Shown: positions 8,821 through 57,725, counted from the stretch's first letter. The stretch is 64,000 nt of DNA from Nannocystis radixulma (GCF_028369095.1 NZ_JAQNDN010000024.1:89350-153349), one strand, 5' to 3'. The notes: generated from the sequence alone by a model not told the origin. Made by a program: numbers and translations.

Positions 8821-9800
8821 ACGAACATGTCTCTTCAGACAGCTCCTCGGCTGGGGTCGCCCGGCCGCTCGCGTTCCTGTTCCCCGGCCAGGGCAGCCAG
8901 GAGCCCGGGATGGGCAAGGCGCTGGCCGAGGCGTTCCCGGCCGCGCGGCGCGTGTTCGCCGAGGCCGACGACGCGCTCGGCGAGTCGCTGTCGCGGCTGT
9001 GCTTCGAGGGTCCGGCCGAGGCGCTGGCACAGACCGCCAACACCCAGCCGGCGATCCTCACCTGCAGCATCGCGGTGTGGACGGTGGTCACGAGCGAGCT
9101 CGGGCTGCAGCCGGCCGCGCTGCTCGGTCACAGCCTCGGCGAGTTCTCGGCGCTGGTCGCCGCGGGCGCGCTGACGTTCGTCGACGCGGTCAAGCTGGTG
9201 CGCCTGCGCGGGCTCGCCATGCAAGAGGCCGTGCCCGCGGGCGTGGGCGCGATGGCGGCGGTGATCGGTGCCGATCCGCTCGCGCTCGAGCAGTGGTGCG
9301 AAGAAGCGAGCACCGGGGGCGAGGTCGTGAGCCCCGCGAACGAGAACGGCGGCGGACAGATCGTGATCGCCGGGCACGCGGCGGCGGTCGAGCGGGTGGT
9401 CGCGCGCGCCAAGGAGAACAAGGCGCGAGCGATGAAGCTCAACGTGTCGGCGCCGTTCCACTGCGCGCTGATGCAGCCCGCGGCCGAGCGGGTGGCCGAG
9501 GCGTTGGCGACGATGGACATCGCCGCGCCGCGTGCGCCCGTGATTGCGAACGTCGATGCCGAGCCGTATCCGACGAGCGGCGGGGCGCAGGACGTCCGCG
9601 ATCGACTCGTTCGTCAGATCACCGGCCGCGTCCGCTGGGAGGCGTCCGTGCGAACGGTAATACGCATGGATATCTCTCGCGGGCTCGAGCTCGGGCACGG
9701 CAAAGTGCTCTGCAACTTGATTAAACGCATCGACAAGGGCTTCTCGCTCGCCGCCGTCGGTTCCCCGGCGGACCTCGATGTGCTAAAGCTCGGCACCTAG
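8817..9800 (+). CDS. fabD: Malonyl CoA-ACP transacylase FabD
   Basis: Contains [14 protein letters not shown] and [20 protein letters not shown] overlap with the plsX stop. The first codons are encoded by a GGACA-family repeat copy. Confidence 0.95.
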
Positions 9801-12592: not shown

Positions 12593-13210
12593 TTGCTCTG
12601 CCCGGTCTGCCGCAGCGGTAGCATCAAGGTCCTCGACTCGAGGGAGAGTCGGGACGGCGGTGCGATCCGGCGGCGCCGCGCGTGCCTCGACTGCAACCAC
12701 CGCTTCACCACCTACGAGCGTATCGAGACCACGCCGCCGATCGTGCTCAAGCGCGGCGGAGGCAAGCAGCTGTTCGATCGCAACAAGATCCGCGCCTCGC
12801 TGCAGGCGGTCTGCCGCAAGCGCCCCGTCGATGACGAGCAGATCGAGGCGCTGCTCGGCGTGGTCGAGCTGTGGGCCGCGACGCGCGGCGAGAAGGAGAT
12901 CCGCGCCGAGGAGATCGCCGACCGGATCCTCCGCCTGCTGCGCCCGCTCGACGCCGTCGCCTACGTGCGCTACGTCGCCATCCACGGCGAGTACCAGGCG
13001 GTCGACGAGTTCGTGCACCTGCTGAACGAGATGGAGAAGGCCGCGCACACCAGCCCGGAGGGCCAGCGCACGCTGTTCGAGATCGACGCCCGCGGGCAGA
13101 TCCAGCTCAGCGCGCCGACCCGGCTGGCGGCCTTCCCCGAGGGCGAGGACGAGGCTGACTCTGGGGACAGGTCCGCGCCGGCCGCGTCGCCGGAGAGCGA
13201 GGTCAATTGA
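12593..13210 (+). CDS. nrdR: Transcriptional repressor NrdR (Zn-ribbon + ATP-cone) with ~50-aa C-terminal extension
   Basis: TTG start 2 nt after the rpiB stop. MLCPVCRSGSIKVLDSRE...CLDCNHRFTTYE... The tail ...ADSGDRSAPAASPESEVN is encoded by a GGACA-family repeat copy. Confidence 0.9.
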   Translation: MLCPVCRSGSIKVLDSRESRDGGAIRRRRACLDCNHRFTTYERIETTPPIVLKRGGGKQLFDRNKIRASLQAVCRKRPVDDEQIEALLGVVELWAATRGEKEIRAEEIADRILRLLRPLDAVAYVRYVAIHGEYQAVDEFVHLLNEMEKAAHTSPEGQRTLFEIDARGQIQLSAPTRLAAFPEGEDEADSGDRSAPAASPESEVN

Positions 13211-14502: not shown

Positions 14503-15267
14503 ATGTTCACCGGCCTCGTGCGCGGCGTCGGCACGGTCGAGCGCGTGATCCCTGGCGCGCAGCGACGCACCTTCGTGATCCGCTACGCGCTGTCGGAGGG
14601 CGATCGCAGCCTCGGCGCCAGCGTCGCGATCTCCGGCGTGTGTCTCACCGTGGTCGCCTCGACCGCCAGCGAATTCACCGTCGAGGCCGCGTTCGAGACG
14701 CTCGCAGTCACCACCCTGGGCGAGCTGCGGCCCGGCAGCCGCGTCAACCTCGAGCCGGCGCTGCGGCTCGGCGATGCGCTCGGCGGTCACCTCGTGTCCG
14801 GCCACGTCGACGGCCTGGCGCGCGTGCGCAGCCGGGTCGCCCGCGGCGACGCGGCCGAGATGTGGTTCGACGTCCCGGCCGAGCTGGCCCGCTACATCGC
14901 GGTCAAGGGCAGCGTGTGCGTCGACGGCGTCAGCCTCACCGTCAACGCCGTCGACCCGCGCGGGTTCGCCGTGGGCCTGATCCCGCACACGCTCACGGCC
15001 ACGACCCTGGCCGACCTGAAGGTGGGCGACGCGCTCAACCTCGAGGTCGACCTGCTGGCGCGCTACGTCGCCCGCCTGCTCGGCTCCGAGGCCGAGGCCG
15101 GCCGCGCTGCCGCGCCCGCGCTCACGCGCGAGGCCCTGGTCCGCGCCGGCTACGTCGACGCCGCGGCCGGCTACGCCGACAACGCCGCCGCGCCCGCCGT
15201 GAATGCTGACTCCGGGGACAGGTCCGAAGCGCCCTGTCCCGAAGTACCTGTCTCCAAGAACAGCTAA
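14503..15267 (+). CDS. ribE: Riboflavin synthase alpha subunit RibE, with ~50-aa C-terminal tail
   Basis: MFTGLVRGVGTV... Two lumazine-binding repeats (GASVAISGVCLTV / GSVCVDGVSLTV). Tail ...NADSGDRSEAPCPEVPVSKNS is encoded by GGACA-family repeat copies. Confidence 0.85.
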   Translation: MFTGLVRGVGTVERVIPGAQRRTFVIRYALSEGDRSLGASVAISGVCLTVVASTASEFTVEAAFETLAVTTLGELRPGSRVNLEPALRLGDALGGHLVSGHVDGLARVRSRVARGDAAEMWFDVPAELARYIAVKGSVCVDGVSLTVNAVDPRGFAVGLIPHTLTATTLADLKVGDALNLEVDLLARYVARLLGSEAEAGRAAAPALTREALVRAGYVDAAAGYADNAAAPAVNADSGDRSEAPCPEVPVSKNS

Positions 15268-16432: not shown

Positions 16433-17747
16433 GGCTGGCGCCACGGACATGTCCCAGGGGACACGTCCGCGGGGCCGTCGCGTCCTGCTGATCGTCAGCG
16501 GCGGGATCGCGGCCTACAAGGCGCCGGAATTGGTGCGGGCGTTCGTCGCCGCCGGCTGCGAGGTCCAGGTGGTGATGACGCCGGCCGCGGAGGCGTTCGT
16601 CAGCGCGCTGTCGCTGGCGACGGTCTCGACCCGGCCGGTGCGCACGCGCCTGCTCGACCCGGAGGAGGAGGGCCACGTCGGCCACATCGAGCTCGCCGAC
16701 TGGCCCGACCTGGTGGTCGTCGCGCCGGCCACCGCCGACCTGCTGGCGCGCGCGACCCACGGGCTGGCGAACGACCTCGCGGCGACGGTGCTGCTGGCCA
16801 CGCGCGCGCCGGTGCTGTGGGCGCCGGCGATGAACACCAACATGTGGCGCCACCCGGCCACGCAGGACAACCTGGCGACGCTGCGCGCCCGCGGGGCCGA
16901 GTTCGTCGGGCCCGATCGCGGGCAGCTGGCGTGCGGGTGGATCGGCGAGGGCCGCATGATCGATCCGCCGCTGATCGTCGCCGCCGCGCTGGCGCGGCTC
17001 GGCGTCGGCCCGGCGAGCCGCGGGCCGTGGGCCGGCAAGCGCGTGCTGGTGTCGGCCGGGCCGACGCGGACGTACATCGATCCGGTCCGCTTCGTCACCA
17101 ACGCGTCGACCGGGGCGATGGGCTTCGCGCTGGCCGACGCGGCCCAGCGCGCCGGCGCCTCGGTGACGCTCGTGGCCGGACCGGTCGAGCTGGTCACGCC
17201 GGCGGGCGTGCGCCGCGTCGACGTCGAGACCGCGGCCGAGATGCAGGCGGCGCTGGAGAACGAGCTGTCTCAAGGGCCATGTGATTGGGTGGCCATGGTG
17301 GCGGCGGTGCAGGACCTCGAGATCGACGGCGGTGCCGCGCGCAAGCTCGAGAAGGCGGAGCTGCTGGCGACGCTGCCGACGCTCGGCTGGCGGGCCGCGC
17401 CCGACATCCTCGCCGCGCTGACGGCCCGCTTCGGCCGCGGCGCGGCGCCGGGCGCCCCGCGCTCGCGCTTCCTCGGGTTCGCGGCGCAGACGGTCGAGGA
17501 TGGCCCCGAGGACAGGTTGCAGCAGGAGCTGATCCGGCTCGGCTCGGTCAAGCTGCGGGCCAAGGGCGCCGACGCGATCTTCGTCAACCGCGTCGGCGCG
17601 CCCGGGGTCGGCTTCGCGTCCGCGACCAACGCCGGCCTGTTGCTGGCGCGCGACGGCGACGCGATCGCCGTGCGCGCCTCGGGCCCGCCGATCGCCAAGG
17701 CGGCGCTGGCCGCCTGGCTGCTCGACGCGCTGGCCGCGACGAGCTGA
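16425..17747 (+). CDS. coaBC: Bifunctional phosphopantothenoylcysteine decarboxylase/phosphopantothenate-cysteine ligase CoaBC
   Basis: RVLLIVSGGIAAYKAPELVR flavoprotein domain plus C-terminal CoaB ligase domain. The likely start is ATG at 16449, inside a GGACATGTCC repeat. Confidence 0.9.
16445..16468. repeat. GGACA-family palindromic repeat pair (GGACATGTCC-cagg-GGACACGTCC) at the ribBA/coaBC junction
   Basis: Read directly. The internal ATG (16449) is the likely coaBC start. Confidence 0.8.
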
Positions 17748-17761: not shown

Positions 17762-19198
17762 GTGGAAGGCGATCGACGCGACGCGACCCGGCGGCTGGCG
17801 GTTCAGTTCGCCGCCCACCTGCGTCACCTCCGGGAGTTCCGGGGTTTGGCGTACGTGTCCGCCGCGTCCTCTCCGCGTCGCGCCGGCGCGCCGAGTTCCG
17901 CGCCCGAGGAGCGATCGCCGGCTCCGGACAGCACCTGGTCGTCCGGACAGGTGACCGATCACGCCGCCGCGGACGCGCGCACACCGACATGGCCCGAAGA
18001 CCAGGCCAGATCCGCCCGCGATTCCGGGCCGCGAGCGCGCACACAACCGGGCCCGGCGGCCTCGGGGCCGCCGCCGCAGGAGATGAAGCGAGGGCGCGCG
18101 CAGCCGGGCCCTGCGGACTGGGAGCCGTCGCAGGAGACGACACGCGGTCGCGCGCAGGCGGGCCCCGAGGACTGGGAGCCGTCGCCGCAGCCGGACCCCG
18201 GGGACTGGGAGCCGTGGCCGCCGCAGGAGACGACACGCGGGCGCGCGCAGCCGGGCTCCGGGGACTGGGAGTCGTCGCAGCAGGAGACGACACGCGGGCG
18301 CGCGCAGCGGGAGTCGCCGCCGCAGGAGCCGACGCGAGGGCGCGCCCAGCGGGGCCCTGCAGAGTGGGAGTCGTCGCCGCCGCAAGAGGCACCGCGCTCA
18401 CGCGCCGCGACCCCGCCGTCCGCGGAGCCGCCGCGCGCTCGCACGGTCAACCAGCAGCCGGCCGAGCCGTCGCCGCGACCCCGGACGGTCAGCCTGCCGC
18501 TGGCGGATCAGGGCACACCGCCGCGTGCGGCCGAGGGCGCGCCGCGCCCGGCCGGCGATGCCTCGCTGCGCACGCAGGCTCAGGCGTGGACGCCGGCGCA
18601 GAAGCTCGAGTACTTACGGGCTCGTAACGTCGGCGACTGCACCCGCTGCAAGCTCTCGAAGACCCGCACGAACATTGTATTCGGCGTCGGCGACCCCAAC
18701 GCGCGGGTGATGTTCATCGGCGAGGCGCCCGGCGCGGACGAAGATCGGCGCGGCGAGCCGTTCGTCGGCGCTGCCGGCCGGCGGCTGACACAGTGGATCG
18801 AGCGCCTGGGCATGAAGCGCGAGCAGGTCTACATCGCCAACGTGCTGAAGTGCCGGCCGCCCGGCAACCGCGAACCGGCCGCCGACGAGATCGAGAAGTG
18901 CTCGCCGTTCCTGCGCGCCCAGATCCGGGCGATCCGCCCCGCGGTGATCGTGGCGCTCGGCAGGTACGCGGGGATGTTGCTGATCGGCACCGATCAGGAT
19001 CTGAAGTTGGCACAGATGCGCAACCGTCGTTGGACCTACGACGACCCAGGTGCAGGCCTGCAGATCCCACTTCACGTCACGTATCATCCGTCGTACGTGA
19101 TCCGACGCGAGGGTGAACTCCCTCCGGGGCAGCGAAACCCGGCCGACGACACGGTGATGTCGGACCTCGAGCGAGCGCTGCGCGTGCTGCGAAGTTGA
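17762..19198 (+). CDS. Family-4 (UdgA-type, Fe-S) uracil-DNA glycosylase with long N-terminal disordered tandem-repeat extension
   Basis: C-terminal ~200 aa: [52 protein letters not shown]...HPSY. GTG at 17762 is preceded by GGAGG at 17749-17753, just after the coaBC stop. The nearest in-frame ATG is at 18083, so at least ~165 aa of repeat region is translated. Confidence 0.7.
18075..18410. repeat. Tandem ~57-bp coding repeats (protein units ..[18 protein letters not shown]..) in the udg 5' region
   Basis: Read directly. Both strands show long ORFs here purely because of the repeat. Confidence 0.7.
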
Positions 19199-19413: not shown

Positions 19414-20073
19414 ATGACGAAGGCTGAACTCATCGAAAAAATCGCACGCAACCGTGATCTGCCGCCGGACATCACGAAGAAGTGCGTGCAGCAGATCCTC
19501 GAGATCGCGTTCGGGGAGATGGCCGCCTACTTCGTCAAGGCGAGGGTGACGCGGGCCCAGAGCCCGCGCTTCACGTTCCCCGGCTTCGGCACCTTCACCA
19601 AGAAGAAGCGCTCGGCTCGCAAGGGCGTCAACCCGCGGACGCTCGAGCCGATGACGATCGATGCGGCCTTCACGATCGACTTCCGTCCGGGCGTCGAGCT
19701 GCGCGCCAGCCTCAACGCTCCGGCTGGCAAGTCCGCCCCCGCGGCTCGGAAGCGGCGCGCCAGCCCGGCCCAGCTCGAGCTCGAGCCGCCGAGCGCCGAT
19801 CCGACCGAGCTCGACGAGGTCGACGAGGAGGATGTCGGCGAGATGAGCGACGAGGCCGACGCGGCCGACGAGGCGCTGATCCTCCGCCGCCGCTTCACCG
19901 CCCGCGAGGACCTCGAGGAGGACGACGCCGACGACGAGTTCGACGAGGTCTCGCTCGACGTGCTGCGCCGCAGCCAGCCCGCCGACCCGCGGCTCGAGCT
20001 GCCGCCGGCGCCGATGCAGCGCGCCGACGTGCCGGGCCGCCGCGCCCACGTACGCACCGGCTCGCGCTCCTGA
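19414..20073 (+). CDS. HU/IHF-family DNA-binding protein with ~120-aa Asp/Glu-rich C-terminal tail
   Basis: MTKAELIEKIA...RFTFPGFGTFTKKKRSARKGVNPRT is the HU fold. The tail is ...DEVDEEDVGEMSDEADAADE...EEDDADDEFDE. Confidence 0.85.
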   Translation: MTKAELIEKIARNRDLPPDITKKCVQQILEIAFGEMAAYFVKARVTRAQSPRFTFPGFGTFTKKKRSARKGVNPRTLEPMTIDAAFTIDFRPGVELRASLNAPAGKSAPAARKRRASPAQLELEPPSADPTELDEVDEEDVGEMSDEADAADEALILRRRFTAREDLEEDDADDEFDEVSLDVLRRSQPADPRLELPPAPMQRADVPGRRAHVRTGSRS

Positions 20074-20180
20074 GAGCTGTCCCGGGGGACATGGCAGCAG
20101 CCGGCCGACCCGCGGCTCGAGCTGCCGCCGGCCGATGCAGCGCGCCGGCTCGCGCTTCTGAGAACTGTCCCCGCGGACAT
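19961..20180. repeat. Partial tandem duplication of the 3' end of the HU-like gene, ending in GGACA-family motifs
   Basis: gccgacccgcggctcgagctgccgccgg...gctcgcgct(c/t)ctgaga(g/a)ctgtccc..ggacatg occurs twice: 19975-20092 and 20093-20180, with internal deletions. Confidence 0.6.
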
Positions 20181-20218
20181 GAACGAAGGGCCATGACCTC
20201 ACGGTCATGGCCCTTCGT
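20181..20218. terminator. Perfect 17-bp-stem hairpin (AACGAAGGGCCATGACC-tcac-GGTCATGGCCCTTCGTT) between convergent genes
   Basis: Read directly. Lies between the HU-like gene stop (20073) and the minus-strand lipoprotein stop (20248). Confidence 0.6.
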
Positions 20219-20247
20219 TCACTGAGGGCGGACGAGCGGTCGCCGGC

Positions 20248-20802
20248 TCACTGCGGCGCGGCCAGCTTGGCCCCGTTCTTGGGCGGCTCGGTCGGCTTGG
20301 GGGTGCCGGTCAGGGTGGCGGGCTTGGTCGTCGGCGCAGCGCCGCCGTTGGAGATGGTGCTGGTCTTGGGCTTGGACTCGCCGGTGGTGAGGCTGAGGCC
20401 GGCCTTCTGCGTGCCGTCACGCGGGGTGGCCTGGGTCCCCGGATCGAGGCGGGCCGGCGTGGGGTCGGTGGCGCGGCCCGGCTTGGGATCGGTGGCGCGG
20501 CCCGGCTTGGGGTCGGTGGCGCGGCCCGGCGTGGGCTCTTCGGTCGGCTCCGGCGCGGGCTCGGGAGTGGTGGTGGCGGGCTCGGGCTCGGGGGCAGGCT
20601 TGGGGGCGGGCTTGGCAGCGGGAGCCGGAGCAGGTGTGCTCGACGTGTCGACCGCGGCCTGGCGCGCCGGCTTGCCCTTGCCGTTCTTCGTCCCGTTGGT
20701 GGTGCCTGGCGCCGTTCCGGAGCGGCTCGACGACGAATACGAGAAGGAGCAGGCGGGCAGCGAGAAGGCGATGGCCATGAAGACCGGAAGGAGCTTGCGC
20801 AT
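20248..20802 (-). CDS. Putative secreted/lipoprotein, Pro/Thr/Ala-rich low-complexity with GRATDPKP x3 repeats
   Basis: Signal peptide MRKLLPVFMAIAFSLPAC. The alternative plus-strand ORF lacks protein-like features. Confidence 0.55.
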   Translation of the reverse strand: MRKLLPVFMAIAFSLPACSFSYSSSSRSGTAPGTTNGTKNGKGKPARQAAVDTSSTPAPAPAAKPAPKPAPEPEPATTTPEPAPEPTEEPTPGRATDPKPGRATDPKPGRATDPTPARLDPGTQATPRDGTQKAGLSLTTGESKPKTSTISNGGAAPTTKPATLTGTPKPTEPPKNGAKLAAPQ

Positions 20803-22974: not shown

Positions 22975-24690
22975 TCAGTTGCTCGCGCAGGGATCGTCGA
23001 GGTCGGGGAACAGGCCGCGGACGGCCCGCTGGGCGCTCGTGGCCAGCTCCTCGCGCTTGCTCGCGGCGCACAGGGCCGCGCGCACGTCGTCGGACGGGGC
23101 CGCCTTGTCGTCGGCGTAGCGCTGCAGGGCGCGCACGAGGCGGAGCGCGACCGCGAGGTCGTCGGTGCTGCGCAGTACGGCGGCGACGACGTCGGCGCCG
23201 GCGCTGCCGTGGCGATCGACGAGCTGGCGCGCGGCCTCGGCCCGCCGGTCGACGTTCTGATCGGCGTCGACCACCACGGCCTGCAGCGCGGCGAAGGCGT
23301 CGGGACCACCGCAGCGGCCGAGCGCGGCGATGACCTCGCGCGCGACGGTGGCGTCGGTCTCGAAGGTGTTGCCCGAGGTGCTGGTGCCGTCGCGCAGCCG
23401 GCGGAGGAGGCCCGCGGAGCACGGGCCGTCGACGCGGGCGAGCGCGGCTGCGCGGACCTCGGGCCAGGCGTGGCGCTGGCTGACGTCGAGCCAGGCGCCA
23501 TCGGCCGGCAGGGTGGCGACGGCGAAGGCCGCGACGGCGACCCGCGGCGCGTCGGCGCCGGTGAGCTGCAGGCGGTCGACGACGGCGGCGGCAGGGCCGG
23601 GCTCGAGCCCGGCGAGGGCGAGGCTGCCGAGGATCTCGCTGCGCAGCTCGACGCGCTTGTCGGCGGGCAGGTGCTGCTCGGCGAGGCGCGCGAGCACCGT
23701 CTGCGCCGCGGGATCGCTGCGCCGCGCGACGAGCACGCGGAGCGCGGCGACGCGGGCGGCGAACTCGGCAGCGGCGTCCTCGGCGAGGGCGGCCGCGCGC
23801 TGGGTGAACACGCCGTCGTCCCTGCCGCCGATCGCAGCCCGCAGCAGCACGAGGCCGGGCAGGCGCGCCGGTTCGCGGGCCTCGATCGCGGCGTCGACGA
23901 CCTGCACGAGCTGGGCCCGCTCGCCGGCGGACGCGTGCGCGCGGCGGGCGATCGCCTGGCGCAGCGCGGCGCGCAGGCTCGGCGCGCCGAGGCCGACCAG
24001 CGCGACGAGCTCGGGCAGCTTGTCGGCCGGCGTGACGGCGACGAGGTCGGCGAGCAAGAGGCCACGCAGCTCCTCGCTGAACGACTTCTCGGCCACGAGC
24101 CCGGTGAGCGCGGGCGCGGCCGCGGGGCCCTGCGCGCGCAAGATCTCGCGCCATGGTTCGGCGGCCGGCAGCTCGATGCCCTGCTCCTGCGACTGCTTGG
24201 CCGCGGCGGCGACGTCGCGGCGCATGGCGTCGGCGAACAGCGGGACGTCCTCGGGGCGGGCGATGCCGCCGAGCAGCGCGAGCAGGCGGCGCTGCTCGAC
24301 CGCGGTGGGCGCGGGCGTGGCGGTCATGCGCGCGGTGACCAGCGGCGCGGCGACGGTCGGGTGCTGCTCGAGCCGCGCGCGGGCCTGCAGGTAGTCCTGG
24401 CCGCGGCCGGTGAGCACGAGCTCGATGTCGGCGCGGGCCTGCTCGGGGCCGTAGGCCGGCGGGATGGGGGCCGGAGCGGGCTCGGGGGCGGAGGCCTTGG
24501 CCTTGCCGCCGCGGGCCGGCGCGAGGGCCAGGAGCGGGCCTGGCCGTTCGGACATGCCCGAACGCACCTGGCCGCCAGGACCTGCGCCGAGGGACATGCT
24601 CGAACCGCCAGGTGCCGCGCCGGCGAGCGCGAGCCAGGCGATCAGCGAGAGGGCCGACAGGGGGGTCGCCACGGGGGACAAGACTGCCAC
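22975..24690 (-). CDS. Secreted all-alpha (HEAT/ARM-like) repeat protein
   Basis: 571 aa. Signal peptide MAVLSPVATPLSALSLIAWLALAGAA. Leu/Ala-rich helical repeats. The N-terminal region carries GGACA-family copies. Confidence 0.55.
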   Translation of the reverse strand: MAVLSPVATPLSALSLIAWLALAGAAPGGSSMSLGAGPGGQVRSGMSERPGPLLALAPARGGKAKASAPEPAPAPIPPAYGPEQARADIELVLTGRGQDYLQARARLEQHPTVAAPLVTARMTATPAPTAVEQRRLLALLGGIARPEDVPLFADAMRRDVAAAAKQSQEQGIELPAAEPWREILRAQGPAAAPALTGLVAEKSFSEELRGLLLADLVAVTPADKLPELVALVGLGAPSLRAALRQAIARRAHASAGERAQLVQVVDAAIEAREPARLPGLVLLRAAIGGRDDGVFTQRAAALAEDAAAEFAARVAALRVLVARRSDPAAQTVLARLAEQHLPADKRVELRSEILGSLALAGLEPGPAAAVVDRLQLTGADAPRVAVAAFAVATLPADGAWLDVSQRHAWPEVRAAALARVDGPCSAGLLRRLRDGTSTSGNTFETDATVAREVIAALGRCGGPDAFAALQAVVVDADQNVDRRAEAARQLVDRHGSAGADVVAAVLRSTDDLAVALRLVRALQRYADDKAAPSDDVRAALCAASKREELATSAQRAVRGLFPDLDDPCASN

Positions 24691-24700: not shown

Positions 24701-26065
24701 TCAGCGCAGCACGATCGTCTCGATCTGCCGGCGCGACATGACGTACGACAGGAGGAGCGCGCGCTTGTCCGTGGCTTGAGTCACGTCGAGCAGGCGCAGG
24801 AAGTCGGCGCTCTCGGAGTCGGCCTCGGCCTGGTTGGCGATCATCCGCTGGACGATCTCGACGAGCGCGCCGGCCTTGAGCGGGGTGTCGGTCGGCATGC
24901 GGAGGAAGAAGCCGAAGTACTCGTGGGCCACGCCGGCCATCTGCAGGCCCTCGGGGCGCGGCAGCAGCAGCTGGAGCAGCCCGCGGCGGCCCTTCGACAT
25001 GCCGCCGAAGCCGAGCTCGCGGACGGCGGCCTCGGTGGCGACGGCGAAGAAGCCGGCGTCGACCGGCACGCCGACGACGAGGCGGTCGACCTCGCGGGGC
25101 AGTGTGCGCTTGCCGCGGGCATAGTTGGCGGCGATCTCGTTCATGACGCCCGGCGGCGCGACGACCAGCTCGCCGCCGTCGAGCACGCGCAGCAGCACCT
25201 CGCCGCCGTGGTAGCGCAGCGGCGTGAGCGCATAGGCCCGCTCGCCGCGGGGGAGCAGGCGGCCGGCGGCGACCGCGGCCTCGAGCTTGGCGGCGAGGTC
25301 GGGGATCTCGATGATCGCGGCGGAGCGGGTGAAGTCGCCGTGCGCGAGGGCGAACGCGCCGCGGGTCCAGACCGCCGCGGTGTCGTCGCCGAGGGCGCGC
25401 GCGACCTGGCAGGTGGCGTCGGCGAACACCGGCTCGGGCCGGCGCGGGCGCCCCTCGGCCTCGGCCTGGGCGCGCCGCTTCTTGTACGCCTCGGTCCGCT
25501 TCTTCTCCTCGGCGACGACGTCGGACATGGCCTTTTGGACAGTCACACCTGTCTCTCGGGACTTGCGCTGGGCCTTGCGGAAGATCCGGACGTCGTCGAG
25601 CTGGTCGCGCACGTGCGGGTCGCAGGTCATGACGTACTCGGCGATCTCGTCGAGCTGCTTGGCCAGCGGCGCGGCCATGAGGCGCTGCATGTGGGCGTGG
25701 AAGACGACGTCGAAGTCCTTCGGCAGGAAGCGGGCGGTGTAGGGCAGGTGGCCGCGGCGGGTGTCGGTCTTGCCGGCGTCCCAGAAGCGGCGCAGCGCGG
25801 CCTTGAGGTCCTCGGGTCGATCCTCTTTCTCGTACAGCTTCACGAGGCGCAGGAGGCCGTCGGTGACCAGCTCGCGGCGATCGGTGCGCTCGTCGAGCAG
25901 CGCCTCGAAGTGCTCGATCGCGCAGTCGCGGCGTTCGATCTCCTCCATGCAGTGCACGCCCTTGCGGTGCAGGCGCTCGGCGCTCGACTCGCCGCCGCGG
26001 ACCGACGCGGGCGCCAGGGCGAGCAGGGCGAGGGAGGCGGCGGCGAGGAGCGTGCGGGCGGACAC
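24701..26065 (-). CDS. Hypothetical secreted protein (454 aa), first gene of a three-gene minus-strand operon
   Basis: Signal peptide MSARTLLAAASLALLALAPASVRG. Balanced composition. 10-bp gap to the next gene. Confidence 0.55.
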   Translation of the reverse strand: MSARTLLAAASLALLALAPASVRGGESSAERLHRKGVHCMEEIERRDCAIEHFEALLDERTDRRELVTDGLLRLVKLYEKEDRPEDLKAALRRFWDAGKTDTRRGHLPYTARFLPKDFDVVFHAHMQRLMAAPLAKQLDEIAEYVMTCDPHVRDQLDDVRIFRKAQRKSRETGVTVQKAMSDVVAEEKKRTEAYKKRRAQAEAEGRPRRPEPVFADATCQVARALGDDTAAVWTRGAFALAHGDFTRSAAIIEIPDLAAKLEAAVAAGRLLPRGERAYALTPLRYHGGEVLLRVLDGGELVVAPPGVMNEIAANYARGKRTLPREVDRLVVGVPVDAGFFAVATEAAVRELGFGGMSKGRRGLLQLLLPRPEGLQMAGVAHEYFGFFLRMPTDTPLKAGALVEIVQRMIANQAEADSESADFLRLLDVTQATDKRALLLSYVMSRRQIETIVLR

Positions 26066-27171: not shown

Positions 27172-27595
27172 GTGCATAGGACATGCTCGGTGGAGCATGT
27201 CCTTGCGGACAGCCATCTCCGTCCGGGAGAGCATGTCCTCTTGGACATGGTACATGCGACACCGCCGCGCTCGCCGCCGCTCGATGAGCCGTCCCGCACG
27301 GCGACAAGCGGGGCCGGCGACGCTCTTCGCAGGCGGGCACGGAGCGGCGGAGTGGGACGCCGGCGGGAGGGGCCGCAGGCAACCGCGCGCAGGCGCCATC
27401 GTCCGCCAGGCACGAACGAACCTGTCCTCAACGACGGATCAACATCGAAGCCCACGGGCGCCGAGCACGTTGCCTGGGAGGGCCCCGCCGAAGCGAGCCG
27501 AAGCGAGGGACCTGCTCCGCCGCTCCGTGCCCGCCGTCACCCAGCTCTCCACGGCCCCGCGTCTTCGGTCGCGCGCTTGTCTCAGACAGGCCCCT

Positions 27596-28471
27596 CTAGC
27601 CGAGGGCGAGGACGGCGAGGCCGAGGACGACGAGGTAGGGCACGAAGGGGACCACGCCGACGCGGACGAGCAGGACCAGCAGCACGCGCAGGGTGGCGAC
27701 GCCGACGACGAAGCTGACGAAGAAGCCGACGACGAAGGCCAGCGGGTCGACGGCGGGCAGGCCCTCCTTCATCAGGTCGAGCGCCTCCTTGAGCGAGGCG
27801 CCGAGGATGGCGGGGATCGCCAGCAGGAACGAGAAGCGCGCGGCCGGCAGGCGGCCGAGGCCGAGGCCCATGGCGGCGGCGATCGTCGAGCCGCTGCGCG
27901 AGATGCCGGGCAGGATGGCGACGAGCTGGGCGAGGCCGATGAGCAGCGCCTGCAGCGGCCGCGGGACCTCCTGCGGGCGCCGGCGCTTGCGGGTCAGCCA
28001 CTCGGCCAGGCCCAGCATGGCCGCGGTGACGAGGAAGCAGGCGCCGATGGCCTTGGGGTGGTGCTCGGCGGCGATGACGAGGTTCTCGACCGGCGGGGCG
28101 AGGGCGGCGGCCAGCGGCAAGGTGCCGATGACGAGCGCGAGCAGCAGCGCCCGCGCGTCGGTCGGCGAGCTGCCCGAGGGGACATGTCCCTCCGAGCCTG
28201 GCGTATCGGGCATGCGCTCGGGGACATGTCCCGGACGCAGCACGGCGCGGGCCAGCGCGAGCAGGTCGTCGCGGTAGTGGATCAGGACGGCCAGCAGGGT
28301 GCCGGCGTGGACGACGATGTTGAACGAGTGGCCGCCGGCGCCGGCGTCGAGGCCGGCGACGCGTTGGGCCAGGGCGAGGTGGCCGGACGAGGAGATCGGC
28401 AGGAACTCGGCCACGCCCTGGAGGGCGCCGAGGAGGGCGGCGAGGCCGAGGTCGAGCTCGGGGGCGGACAT
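27596..28471 (-). CDS. uppP: Undecaprenyl-diphosphatase UppP/BacA, with ~25-aa loop insertion encoded by two GGGACATGTCCC copies
   Basis: ...GISRSGSTIAAAMGLG... Insertion RPGHVPERMPDTPGSEGHVPSGSS corresponds to nt 28178-28232. Confidence 0.9.
   Translation of the reverse strand: MSAPELDLGLAALLGALQGVAEFLPISSSGHLALAQRVAGLDAGAGGHSFNIVVHAGTLLAVLIHYRDDLLALARAVLRPGHVPERMPDTPGSEGHVPSGSSPTDARALLLALVIGTLPLAAALAPPVENLVIAAEHHPKAIGACFLVTAAMLGLAEWLTRKRRRPQEVPRPLQALLIGLAQLVAILPGISRSGSTIAAAMGLGLGRLPAARFSFLLAIPAILGASLKEALDLMKEGLPAVDPLAFVVGFFVSFVVGVATLRVLLVLLVRVGVVPFVPYLVVLGLAVLALG
28178..28232. repeat. Two GGGACATGTCCC copies inserted in frame in uppP
   Basis: Read directly. Confidence 0.8.
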
Positions 28472-30213
28472 CAGGGCTCTTCACCCGTGTACGTGGCCGC
28501 GCGCTCGATCATTCCGCGCTCCCACAGGTGAGTCTCGATGGCGTGCATGAGCGGGAAGGTGCTGCGGCGGTCGATGGCGCTGATGAAGAAGGCGTCGGGG
28601 CCGGCGTCCTCGCGGCGAGCGGCCAGCTCCTCCGGCGCGAGCAGGTCGCACTTGTTGAACACGACGAGGCGCGGGACCTTGCCGGCGCCGAGGTCGCCGA
28701 GGATCCCCTCGACGGCGGCGCGCTGCTGGTCGCGGTCGGGGTCGCTGGCGTCGACGACGAGCAGCAGCAGGTCGGCGTCGGCGACCTCCTCGAGGGTGGC
28801 GCTGAACGCCTGCAGCAGGGCCGGCGGGAGGTCGCGGATGAAGCCGACGGTGTCGAGCAGGACGACCTCGCGGTCCTCGGGGAAGCGGATCCGGCGGACG
28901 GTCGGGTCGAGGGTGGCGAACAGCTTGTTCTCGGCCAGCACCTCGCTCTGGGTCACCGTGTTGAGCAGGCTCGACTTGCCGGCGTTGGTGTAGCCGACGA
29001 TCGCTACGACCGGGACGTTGGTGCTGCGGCGCAGCGCGCGGCGCTGGTCGCGACGCTGGCGCAGCTCGTCGAGGCGGCGCGTCAAGGCGCTGATGCGCTC
29101 CTTGGCGCGGCGGCGATCGATCTCGAGCTTGGTCTCGCCGGGGCCGCGCCCGCCGATCCCGCCGGCCAGCCGCGACATCGCGGTGCCCTTGCCGACCATG
29201 CGCGGCAACATGTAGCGCAGCTGGGCCAGCTCGACCTGCAGCTTGCCGTCGGCGCTGCGGGCGTGCTGGGCGAAGATGTCGAGGATCAGCGTGGTGCGAT
29301 CGATGACCTTGAGCTCGGTCTCCTCGGCGATCGCGTGCGCCTGCGAGGGCGTGAGGTCGGGGTCGCAGATCAGGAGCTCGCAGTCCTGCTCGAGCGCGCG
29401 GACGATGACCTCGCGCAGCTTGCCGTGGCCGAAGAAGGTGCGCGGGTCGGGCTGCGGGCGCCGCTGGGTCACGAGGTCCATCAGCTGGATGCCGGCGGTT
29501 CGGCACAGCTCGCGCAGCTCGGAGATCCGCGCCGGGACCTCGGGGCCGCCGCCGTGTATCATCAGCGCGGTCGCCTTGGTGCCGCGCGCCTCGGCCCGCG
29601 CGTCGGTGGTCGCGGCGACCAGCTTGGCCTCGAGCTCGCGGATGAAGCCCGTGAAGTCGATCGGCAGGTCGGGCGCGTCGGCCGGCGGGGGCGTCTCCTC
29701 GTCGGGTCGCGTCGACAGGTCGCGGCTGAGCGTCGAGACAGGTACTCTCGGCCAGGTCCGCAGCGTGAACACCTCGGCGGCCCCGGGCGCGGCCGGGGTG
29801 AGGCTGGCGAGGTCGAGCTGGATGCCGGCGGGGCCGCGGTGCACGGCGGCGACGAGGTCGAGGCGCAGCTTGGCGAGGTCGGCCAACTCCTCGCGCGTGA
29901 GCGGGTCGGGCACGAGGTGCGTGACGATCAGGCGGATGCCGCGCAAGCGGCCGAGCGCGCCGCGGACGCGGGCGAACTCCGGCAGGCTGAGGCTGTGCGC
30001 GTCGCCGAGGATGACGCGCTCGACCTGACCGCGGCGGTCGATGAAGAGGCCGAGCTGACGCCCGAGCTGGTGCGAGAGGTCGAGCAGGTCGCGCGCGAGG
30101 GCGGCCGAGATGACGCGGTCGGCGGGGACGCGGCGCTCGCCGAGGCGCTGGAGGGCGCGCGACTGGCTGCTCTTCAGGTTGGCGGTGTCGCCGTGGATGC
30201 GGTCGGCGCTCAA
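28471..30213 (-). CDS. hflX: GTPase HflX with ~200-aa N-terminal extension
   Basis: HflX N-domain (..LICDPDLTPSQAHAIAEETELKVIDRTTLILDIF..). G-domain motifs IVGYTNAGKSSLLN, DTVGF, NKCD. 1-nt overlap with uppP. Confidence 0.85.
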   Translation of the reverse strand: MSADRIHGDTANLKSSQSRALQRLGERRVPADRVISAALARDLLDLSHQLGRQLGLFIDRRGQVERVILGDAHSLSLPEFARVRGALGRLRGIRLIVTHLVPDPLTREELADLAKLRLDLVAAVHRGPAGIQLDLASLTPAAPGAAEVFTLRTWPRVPVSTLSRDLSTRPDEETPPPADAPDLPIDFTGFIRELEAKLVAATTDARAEARGTKATALMIHGGGPEVPARISELRELCRTAGIQLMDLVTQRRPQPDPRTFFGHGKLREVIVRALEQDCELLICDPDLTPSQAHAIAEETELKVIDRTTLILDIFAQHARSADGKLQVELAQLRYMLPRMVGKGTAMSRLAGGIGGRGPGETKLEIDRRRAKERISALTRRLDELRQRRDQRRALRRSTNVPVVAIVGYTNAGKSSLLNTVTQSEVLAENKLFATLDPTVRRIRFPEDREVVLLDTVGFIRDLPPALLQAFSATLEEVADADLLLLVVDASDPDRDQQRAAVEGILGDLGAGKVPRLVVFNKCDLLAPEELAARREDAGPDAFFISAIDRRSTFPLMHAIETHLWERGMIERAATYTGEEP

Positions 30214-32595: not shown

Positions 32596-35145
32596 CTAGG
32601 CGCGCGAAGCCAGCAGGCACAGCGCGCCGTGGAGGTCGAGGTCGACCTCGACCTGCATGCCGGCGCGGATCTGGCCGCGCAGGATCGCGTCGGCCAGGAG
32701 CGCCTCGACGCTGCGCGTAAGGACATGTCGCAAGGGACGTGCCCCAAGAGACATGTCCTTTCCGCACAGCGAGACGACGTGGCGGGTGGCGGCCTCGGTG
32801 AGGCGGTAGCGGATGCCGCGCTCGCGCAGCAGGCGGTCGGAGGAGGCGCGGACCAGGCGGGCGCAGATCCGGGCCAGCTGCTCGCCGCCGAGCGGGTGGA
32901 GCACCAGCGGGGCCTCGATGCGGTTCCACAGCTCGACCGGGAAGGCGGCGCGGGCGGCCTCGAGCACGCGGGCCTCGTCGAGGCGGGCGTCGCCGGTGGC
33001 GTCGAGGCAGGTGGCGCCGAGGTTCGAGGTCATGATGATCGCGGCGTGGCGGAAGTCGATGGTGCGGCCGCGGCCGTCGGTGAGGCGGCCCTCGTCGAAC
33101 ACCTGCAGCAACAGCTGGTGGACGTCGCGGTGGGCCTTCTCGATCTCGTCGAGGAGGACGACGCAGTGCGGCTGCTTGAGCAGCGGGTCGGTCAGCGCGC
33201 CGCCCTGCTCGTGGCCGACGTAGCCGGGCGGGGCGCCGACGATCCGCGCGACCGCGTGGGCCTCGGCGTACTCGCTCATGTCGAGGCGGACGAACGCGTC
33301 GGGGCGGTCGAACAGGGCGCCGCACAGGGCCTTGGCGATCTCGGTCTTGCCGACGCCGCTGGGGCCGAGCAGGAGGACGGTGGCGATCGGGCGCTGCGAG
33401 CCGAAGCCGGCGCGGTTCCTGCGGATCAGCTGGGCGATGGCGGCGAGGGCGTGCTCGTGGCCGACGACCTTGCGCGCGAGCTCGGCCTCGAGCTCGAGCA
33501 TGTCCTGGTGGCCCTGGCCCTCGAGGCGCTCGCGCGGGACACCGCTGCGCTCGCAGACGATGTCGACCCAGGTGTCGCGCTGGACGGCGCCGCGGCCCTC
33601 GCGGGCGGTGCGGGCGCAGGCGAGGTCGAGCAGGTCGAGGCTGCGGCCGGGCTGGGCCAGGCCGGCGAGGAAGCGGTCGGACAGGCGCACGAGCTCGGCC
33701 AGGCGGCTACCTGACCCGAGAGACAGGCCGTGCTGGGCCAGCACCGCCGGCGCGGCGGCGGCCACGGCGGCGCGCAGGTCGTCGCCCTCGAGCGGCTGGA
33801 GGGTGACGAGGTCGAGGGCGGCGGTCAGGCCGGGGGCCCAGGCGCACAGGCGGGCCTGACCCTCGGGCGAGGCGACGGCGACGATCGGCGGCTGTCCCGA
33901 AGACCAGGCCTTGGCGAGGGCGCCGAGCAGCGCCGGCGGACCGTCGCCGCCGAGGCGGTCGAGGTCGTCGAGGATGGCGACGCCGCCCTGTTTGGCGATC
34001 GCAGCGAGGTCGGCGCGCAGGCCGTCCTCGTCCTCGTAGCGGGTCGCGGACAGGTAGAAGACCGGTTGGTGGAGCAGGCCGGCGAGGTGCTTGGCGACCA
34101 GCGTGCGGCCGCTGCCGGCCGGACCCACGAGCAGCGGCGGGCGCGGCGAGCGGCGCAGGACGGCGTCGGCGAGGCGCGCCAGCTCGCCCTCGCGGCCGTG
34201 CAGCGGCGGCAGGGCCGAGGGGTCGATCGGGCTCAGGCGGTGGCTGCGGGCCTCGGGCTGAGGCGCGGGGGCCGGGCGCGGCTCGGGCTCGCTGGCCGGC
34301 GCGACCTGGGCGTTGGGACCTGGCTTGAGGGACAGGGCCGACGGACGGCCGGGCTCGGGGCGGGCGGGCAGGCGCGGCTGGGTGCGGGTCGGGGCGCGCG
34401 TGAGCAGGCGCGGCGAATCGGACTGGTCTTCGGGCCAGGTGCGGGCGGCGTCGAGGCGGGCGCGGGCCGGATGGTCTTCGGGCCAGGTGCGGACGTCGGT
34501 CGGTCGAGGCGAGCGCGTGGCAGGCTGGCCTTCGGGCCAGGTGCGGGCGCCGCCGCGGGCGGGGCGGGGCTGGGCCTCGCTGGCGCCTGTCCGCGGGGAC
34601 ATGTCGCCCGTGCGACCGTCGGCGAGCGAGCGGCGGACGGGGCGCTCGCCGGCGGCGACGAGGGTGGACATGCGCTGGACGACGGGGCGCCGCGGCATGG
34701 CTGTCTCGGAGGACATGGCCGATGCGACATGGCGTGAGGGACCTGTCCCGGTGAGCGCGGCGGCCTCGAGCGCGCGCAGGCGGTCGATCAGCAGCTTGCG
34801 CAGGGTGCCGCAGGCGGCGCCGGCCCGCTCGAGCAGCTGGTAGGCGTGCGAGTCGGCGGAGCGGACGAGGGCGAGCAGGAGGTCGAGGTCGGGATCGGCG
34901 GCGCGACCCCCGCGCTGGGTGATCCGCAGGCGCCAGTCGGCCGGCTCGGTCTCGACCTCGGCGTGCAGCTCGTCGACGAGGGCGCGCAGGCGGGCGACGT
35001 CGAGGCCGTGCGCGGCCAGGACGCCCTGGACCGAGTCGGCGGCGCACAGCGAGAGCAGGAGCTCGCACGAGCAGCCGGCCCGCGGCCCGGCTTGCGAGGT
35101 TCGGCGCGAGCCGCTGCGCACGCCAGGCTCCGGGGATCCGATCAT
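32596..35145 (-). CDS. Atypical Clp/Hsp100-family AAA+ ATPase: single Clp-N repeat, ~250-aa disordered insert with RTWPED repeats, degenerate AAA-1, canonical AAA-2
   Basis: AAA-1 has Walker A GPAGSGRT and Walker B ILDDLD. AAA-2 has GPSGVGKTEIAKAL and VVLLDEIEKAH, and ...GARPLRHVL. Confidence 0.75.
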   Translation of the reverse strand: MIGSPEPGVRSGSRRTSQAGPRAGCSCELLLSLCAADSVQGVLAAHGLDVARLRALVDELHAEVETEPADWRLRITQRGGRAADPDLDLLLALVRSADSHAYQLLERAGAACGTLRKLLIDRLRALEAAALTGTGPSRHVASAMSSETAMPRRPVVQRMSTLVAAGERPVRRSLADGRTGDMSPRTGASEAQPRPARGGARTWPEGQPATRSPRPTDVRTWPEDHPARARLDAARTWPEDQSDSPRLLTRAPTRTQPRLPARPEPGRPSALSLKPGPNAQVAPASEPEPRPAPAPQPEARSHRLSPIDPSALPPLHGREGELARLADAVLRRSPRPPLLVGPAGSGRTLVAKHLAGLLHQPVFYLSATRYEDEDGLRADLAAIAKQGGVAILDDLDRLGGDGPPALLGALAKAWSSGQPPIVAVASPEGQARLCAWAPGLTAALDLVTLQPLEGDDLRAAVAAAAPAVLAQHGLSLGSGSRLAELVRLSDRFLAGLAQPGRSLDLLDLACARTAREGRGAVQRDTWVDIVCERSGVPRERLEGQGHQDMLELEAELARKVVGHEHALAAIAQLIRRNRAGFGSQRPIATVLLLGPSGVGKTEIAKALCGALFDRPDAFVRLDMSEYAEAHAVARIVGAPPGYVGHEQGGALTDPLLKQPHCVVLLDEIEKAHRDVHQLLLQVFDEGRLTDGRGRTIDFRHAAIIMTSNLGATCLDATGDARLDEARVLEAARAAFPVELWNRIEAPLVLHPLGGEQLARICARLVRASSDRLLRERGIRYRLTEAATRHVVSLCGKDMSLGARPLRHVLTRSVEALLADAILRGQIRAGMQVEVDLDLHGALCLLASRA

Positions 35146-35579: not shown

Positions 35580-35799
35580 GGCGCGCGAGAGCGCTCGTGG
35601 CGCGAGAACGCGCCAGGGCGACTTGGTCGCCAGCGCCAGCCGACGCTTCGGGCGGTGAGGGCGCGCGAGGCGCTGGCTGCTAGCGAGCGCGATCTTGCCG
35701 AGAATTGAGATGTTCTCATGGACATGTCTCATGAGACATCCGCGAGCGACCCGCCCGGGCTGGAGCCTCGGGCGGGCGATGCTCGGAGGCGAGGCGGGC

Positions 35800-36360
35800 T
35801 CAGCCGACGCTCTCGATCACCGGGGACCAGAACAGACAGTCGTCGCCTGGCTGCTCGCCGCGGGCCCAGCCGCCGAGCTTGCAGCTGTCGCCGCGGAGGA
35901 CGTCGATGGTGCGGACGAGGACGTCCATCGGCACGTCGCCCTCGGCGGTGATCGTGACGGTCGACTCGGCGGGGAACAGCTGCTTGAGATCGCGGGCGGC
36001 GGCGGCGAGGGCGGCGTAGTCGTAGTCGCCGCCGTTCAGGGGGATCGTGCCGGGGCCGGCGTCGGCACCGCCGGAGCGGGTGCGGAAGCCGTCGCGGCCG
36101 ATCGCCACCTTGAAGCCGAGCTCGGGCTGGCTGGGATCCTTCGGCCGCGCGGTCACGTCGCTGACGGTGCGCGGGACGGCGACCGAGATCTGGGCCATGC
36201 TGGCGAACTCCATCGCCAGGAGCAGGGCGGGGATCAGCAAGAACATGATGTTCATGACGGGCAGGAGGTCGGCTTGGACGGTGTCTTCCTCGGGCGGCTT
36301 GCGGGTGGGCACGGCGGGGTCCTCCGATGGCAGCGAATAGTCAGCTGGTGAAATGGACAT
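35800..36360 (-). CDS. ExbD/TolR-family biopolymer transport protein with C-terminal extension
   Basis: LLPVMNIMFLLIPALLLAMEF transmembrane motif typical of ExbD/TolR. Confidence 0.65.
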   Translation of the reverse strand: MSISPADYSLPSEDPAVPTRKPPEEDTVQADLLPVMNIMFLLIPALLLAMEFASMAQISVAVPRTVSDVTARPKDPSQPELGFKVAIGRDGFRTRSGGADAGPGTIPLNGGDYDYAALAAAARDLKQLFPAESTVTITAEGDVPMDVLVRTIDVLRGDSCKLGGWARGEQPGDDCLFWSPVIESVG

Positions 36361-36480
36361 GTCGCGACGGACATGTCGGCCGCCACCGGCCGCACGCGCG
36401 TCGCTCGGGAGCGGCAGACAGCGCCGCCCCGGCGAGGTTCCCGAGGAATATTCAGAGCCGTACGCGCGTGACCGCGAGCT

Positions 36481-37136: not shown

Positions 37137-37200
37137 CATGTCTTCGGGACATGTCCTTTCTACGCTGTCGCGGAAGTCATGTCCTCAAGAACATGTCCTC
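37137..37200. repeat. GGACA-family array (GCATGTCTTCGGGACATGTCC ... GTCATGTCCTCAAGAACATGTCC) in the ClC/cupin intergenic spacer
   Basis: Read directly. Confidence 0.8.
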
Positions 37201-43029: not shown

Positions 43030-43174
43030 CGATCGACCTCGCTGGTGAACGTGGGGTGGATGGTCGTCACGGCATGTCGTGAGAGGCATGTCCCGGAGGA
43101 CATGGTCACGGGGGCATGCTCGAAGAGACCCGTGGCCAGGCGACGAGGGGCAGGGGCAGAGCGCTCGCGGTGGA

Positions 43175-45370: not shown

Positions 45371-45414
45371 GTCCGGGCGGACATGCGCGAATCGACAGGC
45401 TCTCGCGGACATGC

Positions 45415-45420
<6 letters not shown>
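45345..45420. repeat. GGACA-family array of 5 copies (GAGGACATGTCC..GCATGTCC..GGACATGCGC..GACAGGCTC..GGACATGCTC) at the malK / SBP-permease junction
   Basis: Read directly. Confidence 0.8.
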
Positions 45421-50481: not shown

Positions 50482-50607
50482 GAGTGGCTCCGTGAAACCC
50501 GTAGCACCACAAGGCAGACGCGCACGGGGCTGCACGCGGCGGCCGGCAGGAGAGCCCGGCGTGATACGCTGGGGCCGATGCGTGGGGGAGGTCGGCACGT
50601 CCGTGTG

Positions 50608-52716: not shown

Positions 52717-52989
52717 GGAGCTGTCTCTCGGGACATGTCATGGTGACTTGGAGGACATGTCCTCCGGGGCATGCCGATGGCGATGAGGATGTGCTGTTCA
52801 CCTGGTCGACTGCGCGCGGGGCGAATTTGCGCGCGAAAATCGAGGCGATCGGACGCGACGGAAAGGGCGTAATGGCGGCTGGGGCTGGCGACGGGGCAGG
52901 AATGCTCGCCATCGCGCGAAGTGGCCTCTTGCCTGGAAATGAAACGCGTTCTAGATGTGTAGAACGCGTTTCACAGAGGACGAATCTCC

Positions 52990-56920: not shown

Positions 56921-57010
56921 TGTCTAGACATGTCTCATTGGGCATGCGCAGACGGCAAGGTCATGAGGCGCCCCGGGCGATCAGACATGTCGTCACAGAC
57001 ATGTCCGAAT
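56921..57010. repeat. GGACA-family array (AGACATGTCTC..GGCATGCGC..AGACATGTCGTCACAGACATGTCC) in a convergent intergenic region
   Basis: Read directly. Confidence 0.75.
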
Positions 57011-57026
57011 GAACATTCCCCTTTGG

Positions 57027-57632: not shown

Positions 57633-57725
57633 GTCGAGGCGAAACTATCACGGAGGCGCCGTTACCGCCAAACTGCAAGTTTGGTGATCTGAATTACGAA
57701 AAGGGCATTGCTGCCGTGCGTGCGA

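Follow-up and report, generated by a model that had tools for sequence, protein, structure and literature searches.

The window analysed here is a 64-kb stretch of DNA from the soil myxobacterium Nannocystis radixulma (Myxococcota), with a G+C content of 69-75%, and syntenic loci of its relatives amounting to about 105 kb were examined alongside it. Genes were called with a home-made map built from codon statistics, which yielded 49 ORFs covering 89% of the window; since the map is home-made, gene ends are approximate and the assignment of positions near them to ORF or intergenic DNA is uncertain. Pfam was searched with about 40 of the 49 ORFs. The housekeeping genes comprise plsX-fabD-fabG-acpP-fabF, rpiB, nrdR, ribD-ribE-ribBA, coaBC, a UDG-family gene, an HU-like gene, queA, uppP, hflX, response regulators, a Clp-like AAA+ ATPase and exbD, together with a ClC channel, a maltodextrin-type ABC transporter, amylases and a LamB-like porin. 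The UppP encoded in the window is 100% identical to an N. radixulma UppP (P0001), and the neighbouring AAA+ ATPase shares 99% identity with a protein of Nannocystis sp. SCPEA4. An exact-protein look-up of genomic context for UppP found no record. The gene and the segment that form the starting point of this study are:

27596-28471, minus strand: uppP, undecaprenyl-diphosphate phosphatase (BacA family), 291 aa; Pfam PF02673, E=4.7e-65
28166-28237, minus strand: in-frame insert in uppP, residues 79-102 (RPGHVPERMPDTPGSEGHVPSGSS), five 14-bp units

UppP matches positions 1-256 of the 257 in the PF02673 profile and contains the invariant SxxxH and PGxSRSG segments. Within the insert, units 2 and 5 are perfect and the rest degenerate, and the perfect cores lie 42 bp apart. 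A sequence-only reading of this DNA had singled out a pair of GGGACATGTCCC copies inside uppP as an in-frame insertion that UppP homologs lack, and had likened it to the RPEs of Rickettsia. The 12-mer indeed occurs exactly twice in the window (28179-28190 and 28221-28232, against 0.01 copies expected), and both copies read G-H-V-P in the uppP frame. In a protein alignment the 24-residue segment was absent from UppP of Enhygromyxa, Pseudenhygromyxa and other Nannocystaceae, which bears out the claim that the insertion is lineage-specific; Plesiocystis uppP is about 24 codons shorter, and the segment is 12-16 residues longer than the loop of E. coli UppP. Mapping the insert onto an AlphaFold2 model of UppP (mean pLDDT 88) also agreed with the earlier placement in a loop, as the segment was predicted to be disordered coil (pLDDT 45-55) between helices 67-78 and 103-124. 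The positive-inside rule suggests that this loop faces the cytoplasm. As RNA or DNA, the insert is predicted to fold into a hairpin of -44.3 kcal/mol (z=-2.8).

The length of this loop ranged from about 25 to approximately 110 residues among Nannocystis species, in proteins of 291-374 aa. Cores of the type ACATGT/ACATGC recur with a 42-bp period in the loop DNA of L001, L002, L003, L007 and L008, a set of loci that comprises N. exedens, N. punicea, N. bainbridge, strain RBIL2 and N. pusilla, and the RBIL2 loop (L007) carries two near-identical 42-bp copies in tandem. Three deeper Nannocystis-like MAGs (L004, L005 and L012) instead carry long, unrelated inserts at the same place, without CATG arrays, and the UppP loop is therefore a generally permissive hotspot. 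A separate observation concerns N. pusilla Na p29, where the uppP loop (L008:10190-10560) is interrupted by a TAA stop and by the loss of 1 nt before the frame is regained further on; annotations for this species include a truncated UppP of 247 aa (P0030) and, in another strain, an intact protein of 335 aa (P0007). The lesion in Na p29 reflects either a pseudogene or split gene or else an error of long-read assembly.

Analysis of the window as a whole revealed a palindromic core of 10 bp, GGACATGTCC, which the 12-mer represents in its best-preserved form. Allowing up to two mismatches, we counted 91 copies of this core against 23.7 expected; perfect copies numbered 9 against 0.07 expected, an over-representation of about 135-fold, and the 8-mer GACATGTC was present in 20 copies against 0.78 expected. 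The core is joined to a free 4-nt spacer in a 14-bp unit that forms tandem arrays. Core-to-core distances of 14, 28 and 42 bp were found for 49, 18 and 11 pairs, respectively, compared with a background of 1-5, and spacings of 13 or 15 bp were almost nonexistent. A sequence logo showed the central C and G of the core to be invariant (62/62). The spacers vary in sequence, CTTG/CAAG and GAAG/CTTC being weakly preferred; they are enriched in AT (54% GC vs 72%), and the likeness of successive spacers within an array (33%) did not exceed that of random pairs (29%). Most arrays contain 2-6 units, the overall range being 1-6 or more, and neither their length nor their ends are fixed. Arrays or strong single cores number about 40 in the 64 kb, approximately one per 1.5 kb. 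Isolated cores are few (about 5/32 at no more than one mismatch), and copies lie overwhelmingly in 14-bp-phased arrays. None of the six reading frames of the core contains a stop codon, and a triple of units measures 42 bp, which is 14 codons and four helical turns.

The same 14-bp signal was recovered from five syntenic Nannocystis loci (19-28 pairs per 21 kb), and none was detected in loci of Enhygromyxa, Plesiocystis and other Nannocystaceae of equal G+C; judged from these loci, the repeat is specific to the genus Nannocystis. Scanned in full against Rfam at gathering thresholds, the window gave zero matches. Tandem Repeats Finder missed most arrays because their spacers diverge, and it also left the 42-bp repeat of the RBIL2 loop uncalled. 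Searches of the literature returned no account of the motif in bacteria or of Nannocystis repeats, the hits being p53 papers and genome announcements only. Viral contigs scanned for a perfect core-N4-core doublet gave one match (L066:8925-8948, IMG/VR), which is a single 14-bp duplication in phage-like DNA of 66% GC without enrichment and is probably coincidental.

Arrays mapped elsewhere in the window are listed below; those of the Clp-like ATPase are described separately.

8823-8846, plus strand: two-unit array directly after the overlap of the plsX stop and fabD start (ATGA, from 8817)
15216-15253, plus strand: three-unit array, riboflavin synthase C-terminal tail, past the last Pfam domain
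16445-16468, plus strand: two-unit array, coaBC start codon and codons 1-8 (MSQGTRPR)
20161-20221, unstranded: intergenic array between convergent genes; perfect 19-nt arms, 4-nt loop; -44.9 kcal/mol, z=-8.5
24536-24615, minus strand: six-unit array, codons 19-45 of a 565-aa protein without Pfam match
27179-27266, unstranded: arrays 8 bp past the queA stop, in the convergent gap with uppP
35706-35743, unstranded: three-unit intergenic array between convergent genes
36355-36378, unstranded: two-unit array upstream of exbD, its position kept in six species
37147-37198, unstranded: four-unit array 1 bp past the stop of the ClC-channel gene
43070-43121, unstranded: four-unit intergenic array between ABC-transporter permease genes
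45337-45416, unstranded: six-unit array at the malK stop and the next ORF's start; -60.2 kcal/mol, z=-8.5
52581-52604, plus strand: perfect core and one degenerate unit, C-terminal part of alpha-amylase (EDMSFAPGP)
52717-52776, unstranded: arrays beginning 1 bp past the amylase stop codon
56926-57020, unstranded: two three-unit arrays in a convergent intergenic gap
57723-57823, unstranded: arrays at the end of a LysR-family gene and in the gap to the next gene

Units were approximately 4.5-fold denser in intergenic DNA than in ORFs (4.7 vs 1.0 per kb), and 59 of the 91 copies still lie within called ORFs because ORFs make up 89% of the window. The core dominates intergenic DNA and is present in all three reading frames and on both strands. 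For 10 of the 49 genes a unit lies between -45 and +20 bp relative to the stop codon, and arrays closely follow the stops of queA (+8), the ClC channel (+1), plsX (+3) and the amylase (from +1). Convergent 3'-3' gaps with arrays are found at 20161-20221, 27179-27266, 35706-35743 and 56926-57020. The 5' regions of genes carry arrays too, and arrays are as common in convergent gaps and right after stops as in promoters. Within ORFs, the strong arrays occupy N-termini (coaBC codons 1-8; 24536-24615), the linker of the Clp-like ATPase and the UppP loop, and the C-terminal tails of nrdR, ribE and the LysR gene likewise carry strong arrays past the last domain. Codons ending in A or T make up 31% of those within arrays, compared with 4.9% elsewhere. 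At fabD, the acyltransferase domain does not begin until residue 20, about 14 residues later than usual, and this points to an extension of that length (42 bp) at the N-terminus. In their C-terminal tails, nrdR and ribE also share a 22-bp sequence, GCTGACTCYGGGGACAGGTCCG (13154-13175 and 15205-15226), with ADSGDRS as the reading of both tails; chance would be expected to give no match of this kind, and it may represent the end of a longer repeat or local gene conversion.

Neighbouring units pair with each other in a 10-bp stem with a 4-nt loop, and the resulting hairpins reach z values down to -8.8. At 45340-45413 this pairing extends to a 74-nt imperfect palindrome whose 36-nt arms, spacers included, are 81% complementary, and at 20180-20221 the 19-nt arms are 100% complementary, with the stem conserved and the loop variable in six species. 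Deviations from the consensus were compensated in the neighbouring unit in 4 cases, compared with 1.1 by permutation (p = 0.035, window alone), and pooling over six species, which are non-independent samples, gave 23 against 10.9 ± 3.1. In direct register, deviations were not shared between units; since neither spacers nor deviations are shared in this register, a recent simple tandem duplication was ruled out as the source of the arrays. A model in which the arrays are hairpins only was rejected as well, as it leaves unexplained why every arm is itself palindromic with an invariant CATG.

Comparison among species pointed to the core as the constrained part of the unit. In a comparison resting on a few hundred alignable positions and non-independent species, intergenic cores were conserved at 88% across five relatives, spacers at 64% and background at 80%; the corresponding in-ORF values were 93% for cores and 76% for spacers, with third codon positions conserved at 91% in cores vs 84% elsewhere. 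Orthologous array sites persist in six species while unit number and spacers change. This is illustrated by the queA-uppP gap, where orthologous arrays of 4-7 units are present in 5/5 relatives, the cores being kept and the spacers and unit number differing.

The Clp-like AAA+ ATPase carries three arrays:

32721-32758, minus strand: three-unit array on the conserved sensor-2 segment (DMSLGARPLRHVL) of the AAA+ D2 module
34583-34606, minus strand: two-unit array in the linker (GDMSPRTG)
34711-34748, minus strand: three-unit array in the hypervariable N-terminal linker (TGTGPSRHVASAMSSET)

The linker had been named as a further site of in-frame insertion, and a three-unit array does lie there in frame; insertion is compatible with a 17-residue gap that falls exactly at this array in an ortholog (P0126), and on the strength of that alignment the array is probably a lineage-specific insertion. 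The same linker also contains a 54-bp tandem repeat in three copies (34419-34568), which encodes repeats of the RTWPEDxP type and differs in copy number among six species, and thus constitutes a second, distinct source of length variation. The sensor-2 array behaves differently. Its units have 1, 2 and 1 mismatches, and such triples are expected by chance at about 3e-6. Orthologs down to 53% identity align through this region free of gaps and share D-x-x-LGARPLRH(V/L). In Nannocystis, the motif is built by changes of DAA/DSA to DMS together with the rare codons CTT, GCA, CGT, TTG, CGA and CAT, and both the substitutions and the rare codons are kept in six species. Together with its flanks the array is predicted to form a 61-nt hairpin (-39.3 kcal/mol, z=-8.8). 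Insertion of a mobile element cannot account for this strong array, which requires selection or drive for the DNA motif on existing codons. Peptides predicted from array-bearing genes include HVPERMPDTPGSEGHVPSGSSPTDAR for UppP and DMSLGAR for the AAA+ ATPase.

The sequence-only reading had listed several more in-frame copies, and these fared unevenly. Those in the amylase (52581-52604; gene at 50605-52716) and in a hypothetical protein (25523-25546; gene at 24701-26065) proved genuine motif copies in frame, and may be either insertions or overlays. At the HflX site (29736-29759, minus strand), the motif match is weak (3 and 2 mismatches) and lies on conserved codons; LRTWPRVPV aligned without an indel across 13 Nannocystaceae orthologs, which contradicts an insertion. 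In HflX itself (28471-30213), the GTP-bdg_N domain is preceded by some 228 additional N-terminal residues, an extension that Nannocystaceae orthologs conserve in full. The internal CoaBC site (17261-17285) matches the motif poorly and differs by 2 residues only from the M. smegmatis and E. coli structures, and is likewise no insertion; the true copies in coaBC are those at its start codon (16445-16468). The proposed udg site (17921-17955) is weak, as its units have 3 mismatches and are out of the 14-bp register, and it falls in a repeat-rich extension upstream of the conserved UDG domain. Of the peptides said to follow from the reading frame, GHV(P) and DMS did recur, whereas TCP was rare.

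The likeness to RPEs held in part. RPEs are discrete elements of about 100-150 bp that form sequence families, each with its own conserved peptide, and they are fused in frame at high frequency (PMC10969869). What the Nannocystis repeat has in common with them is a palindromic repeat lying in frame in housekeeping genes, a peptide at a permissive site and restriction to a lineage, as in the UppP loop insert. It differs in anatomy, in its intergenic bias and in the non-insertions at HflX and CoaBC: the arrays are variable in number of 14-bp units, share only a 10-bp core and are commoner per kb outside genes, and the motif is able to overlay conserved codons without insertion. A selfish RPE- or MITE-like palindrome that transposes into genes and survives where it falls in frame in surface loops could account for the lineage-specific UppP insert in a loop predicted to be disordered, for the folding of the entire insert as a hairpin and for copy numbers that differ between species, and the frequent in-frame fusions known for RPEs would lend it precedent (PMC10969869). 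However, neither a unit of fixed length nor target-site duplications nor terminal inverted repeats separate from the core are present, orthologous arrays occupy the same sites in six species with turnover of units rather than presence or absence, the sensor-2 array is free of indels, and 2 of the 7 proposed insertions (HflX and internal CoaBC) are not insertions; we therefore regard a mobile element of this kind as unlikely. By analogy with known systems, the arrays resemble RPEs in the UppP outcome only and are closer to REP/BIME and HIP1. Like REP/BIME and REPIN sequences, they are short imperfect palindromes that are arrayed, form hairpins and are lineage-restricted; in position the likeness is partial, with units denser between genes and arrays after stops and in convergent gaps, and with 59 of the 91 copies in called ORFs. 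In contrast, the arms of REPs are non-palindromic, REP clusters lack strict phasing, ORFs are essentially free of REPs, and REPs are tied to a RAYT transposase, none of which was seen among the roughly 40 Pfam-scanned ORFs of the window. With HIP1 (GCGATCGC) of cyanobacteria the repeat shares the character of a hyper-abundant short palindrome conserved between genomes, both in and between ORFs (PMC5861425, PMC4390886); HIP1 is over-represented 15- to 300-fold, compared with 20 vs 0.78 for GACATGTC and 9 vs 0.07 for GGACATGTCC here. No peptide or RNA role has been found for HIP1 (PMC5861425). A HIP1-like palindrome kept by a repair bias linked to methylation, or because chromosome structure is under selection, with CATG/ACATGT as the site of an orphan methyltransferase, would explain a perfect 10-mer in such excess in and between ORFs and its conservation between genomes. 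It seems a distinctly improbable explanation all the same, since the HIP1 8-mer is scattered singly with a kb-scale periodicity and without strictly phased tandem arrays, whereas isolated cores are few here and the units follow each other at an exact 14-bp step; HIP1 is linked to two orphan methyltransferases.

Exact phasing is instead a property of tandem operators and iterons. MetJ met-box arrays are tandem palindromic operators, and they, like iterons, resemble the Nannocystis arrays in having exactly phased palindromes with conserved cores, each presumably one dimer site. Arrays under host selection and bound by an abundant dimeric nucleoid-associated protein or global regulator that polymerises at 14-bp steps (three dimers to four helical turns), with coding copies selected for binding and the encoded peptide incidental, would be consistent with the 10-bp dyad, its invariant CATG centre, strict spacing and free spacers, with conservation of the cores above background at synonymous sites as well, and with the rare codons that build the motif in a conserved protein segment, and the met-box arrays offer a precedent by analogy. 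Met boxes and iterons are confined to few promoters or plasmid loci, whereas the Nannocystis arrays occur about once per 1.5 kb and extend to 3' ends and coding DNA. The frequency of arrays in convergent gaps and after stops, equal to that in promoters, speaks against this reading, and the arrays in convergent gaps rule out a promoter or operator function alone; compensated deviations point to pairing between units, and no candidate protein was found among the roughly 40 Pfam-scanned ORFs of the window. We therefore consider operator-like arrays a possible, though not a probable, explanation. Ordinary expansion of a low-complexity linker, with selection acting on a GHVP/DMS peptide repeat and the palindrome arising as a by-product, might be thought to fit the many other in-frame tandem repeats in linkers of the window (18070-18435, 20449-20564, 34419-34568 and 55002-55149) and the unrelated inserts in the UppP loop of the deeper MAGs. 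It is contradicted by the intergenic enrichment, as the core prevails between genes and likewise in every reading frame of both strands; a period of 14 bp is no multiple of a codon and codon usage within arrays is grossly atypical, and we give this explanation hardly any credence. The UppP loop also resembles coding minisatellites of the MIRU type in varying by frame-preserving gain and loss of units, with the difference that its frame-preserving 42-bp unit is itself made up of three smaller units of 14 bp, which recur genome-wide.

We consider it fairly probable that the palindromes in uppP are units of a short interspersed repeat of Nannocystis that combines extragenic hairpins, a core read by sequence and expansion within ORFs. 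Arrays that arise or expand in ORFs would survive if the segment is permissive and the length is a multiple of three; tolerance in frame follows from a core that is stop-free in six frames and from a triple of units that keeps the frame. The UppP loop is such a segment, and among species it grew and shrank in 42-bp-periodic steps; its periodicity and length variation suggest slipped-strand events or unequal recombination between units as the driving process. Genome-wide, the core may be kept by a sequence-specific reader, most likely a dimeric DNA-binding or DNA-processing protein. The argument for such a reader is that each arm is a dyad with an invariant CATG and that the step is exactly 14 bp, which suggests that a protein reads each unit. 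Selection or molecular drive for the core also acts on existing codons, as shown at one site, the AAA+ sensor-2 segment, and the translated peptides GHVP and DMS would be by-products. The behaviour of the arrays genome-wide is an extrapolation from the 64 kb of the window and about 105 kb of relatives, and no binding protein, transposase or methyltransferase was identified, with none of the Y1/RAYT type among the approximately 40 of 49 ORFs scanned against Pfam.

If these arrays extend genome-wide, the 12-13 Mb genome would by extrapolation contain several thousand of them, and they would represent a new kind of bacterial interspersed repeat in which traits of REPs (extragenic hairpins), HIP1 (a conserved palindrome in genes) and RPEs (in-frame peptides) are combined. 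The growing UppP loop and the overlay on sensor-2 codons of the AAA+ ATPase would then provide a tractable case of a DNA-level signal invading coding sequence. Arrays could also account for unusual extensions at either end of ORFs (N- and C-terminal), for orthologs that vary in length and for possible problems of annotation or assembly in Nannocystis, whose genomes are mined for natural products. A bolder version of the interspersed-repeat reading, which we hold only tentatively and think rather doubtful, is that a dedicated sequence-reading system, in which a protein binds or processes dimers of GGACATGTCC at 14-bp steps, actively propagates and homogenises arrays chromosome-wide and rewrites even conserved codons. 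Were this true, a change in unit number within an ORF (uppP, the transporters, the AAA+ linker) could switch the reading frame, 14 not being a multiple of 3, or unit gain and loss could alternatively generate variable disordered loops.

Several other features of these loci were recorded. Conserved array hairpins lie downstream of a gene (19414-20073) for an HU/IHF-type protein, whose Bac_DNA_binding domain (residues 1-101) is extended at the C-terminal side by about 120 residues. Upstream of the UDG domain, 18070-18435 is dense with in-frame tandem repeats (periods of 33, 42, 54, 57, 93 and 99 bp), which form either a long low-complexity N-terminal extension or else untranslated DNA and have no relation to the 14-bp arrays. 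A perfect 39-bp tandem repeat (2.1 copies, 100% identity) is found at 55069-55149, where the coding signal is weak. A single ORF of 747 aa (43175-45418) joins a solute-binding-protein domain (59-343) to an ABC permease domain (534-742), apparently as a MalE-MalF-type fusion or read-through, and has motif copies at its start (45337-45416), residue 166 and residue 341. Finally, an extra coding segment of about 1 kb lies between uppP and the queA-side arrays in three relatives (L002:11140-12200, L003:11020-11900 and L007:11090-12000), and the window, L001 and L008 are without it.
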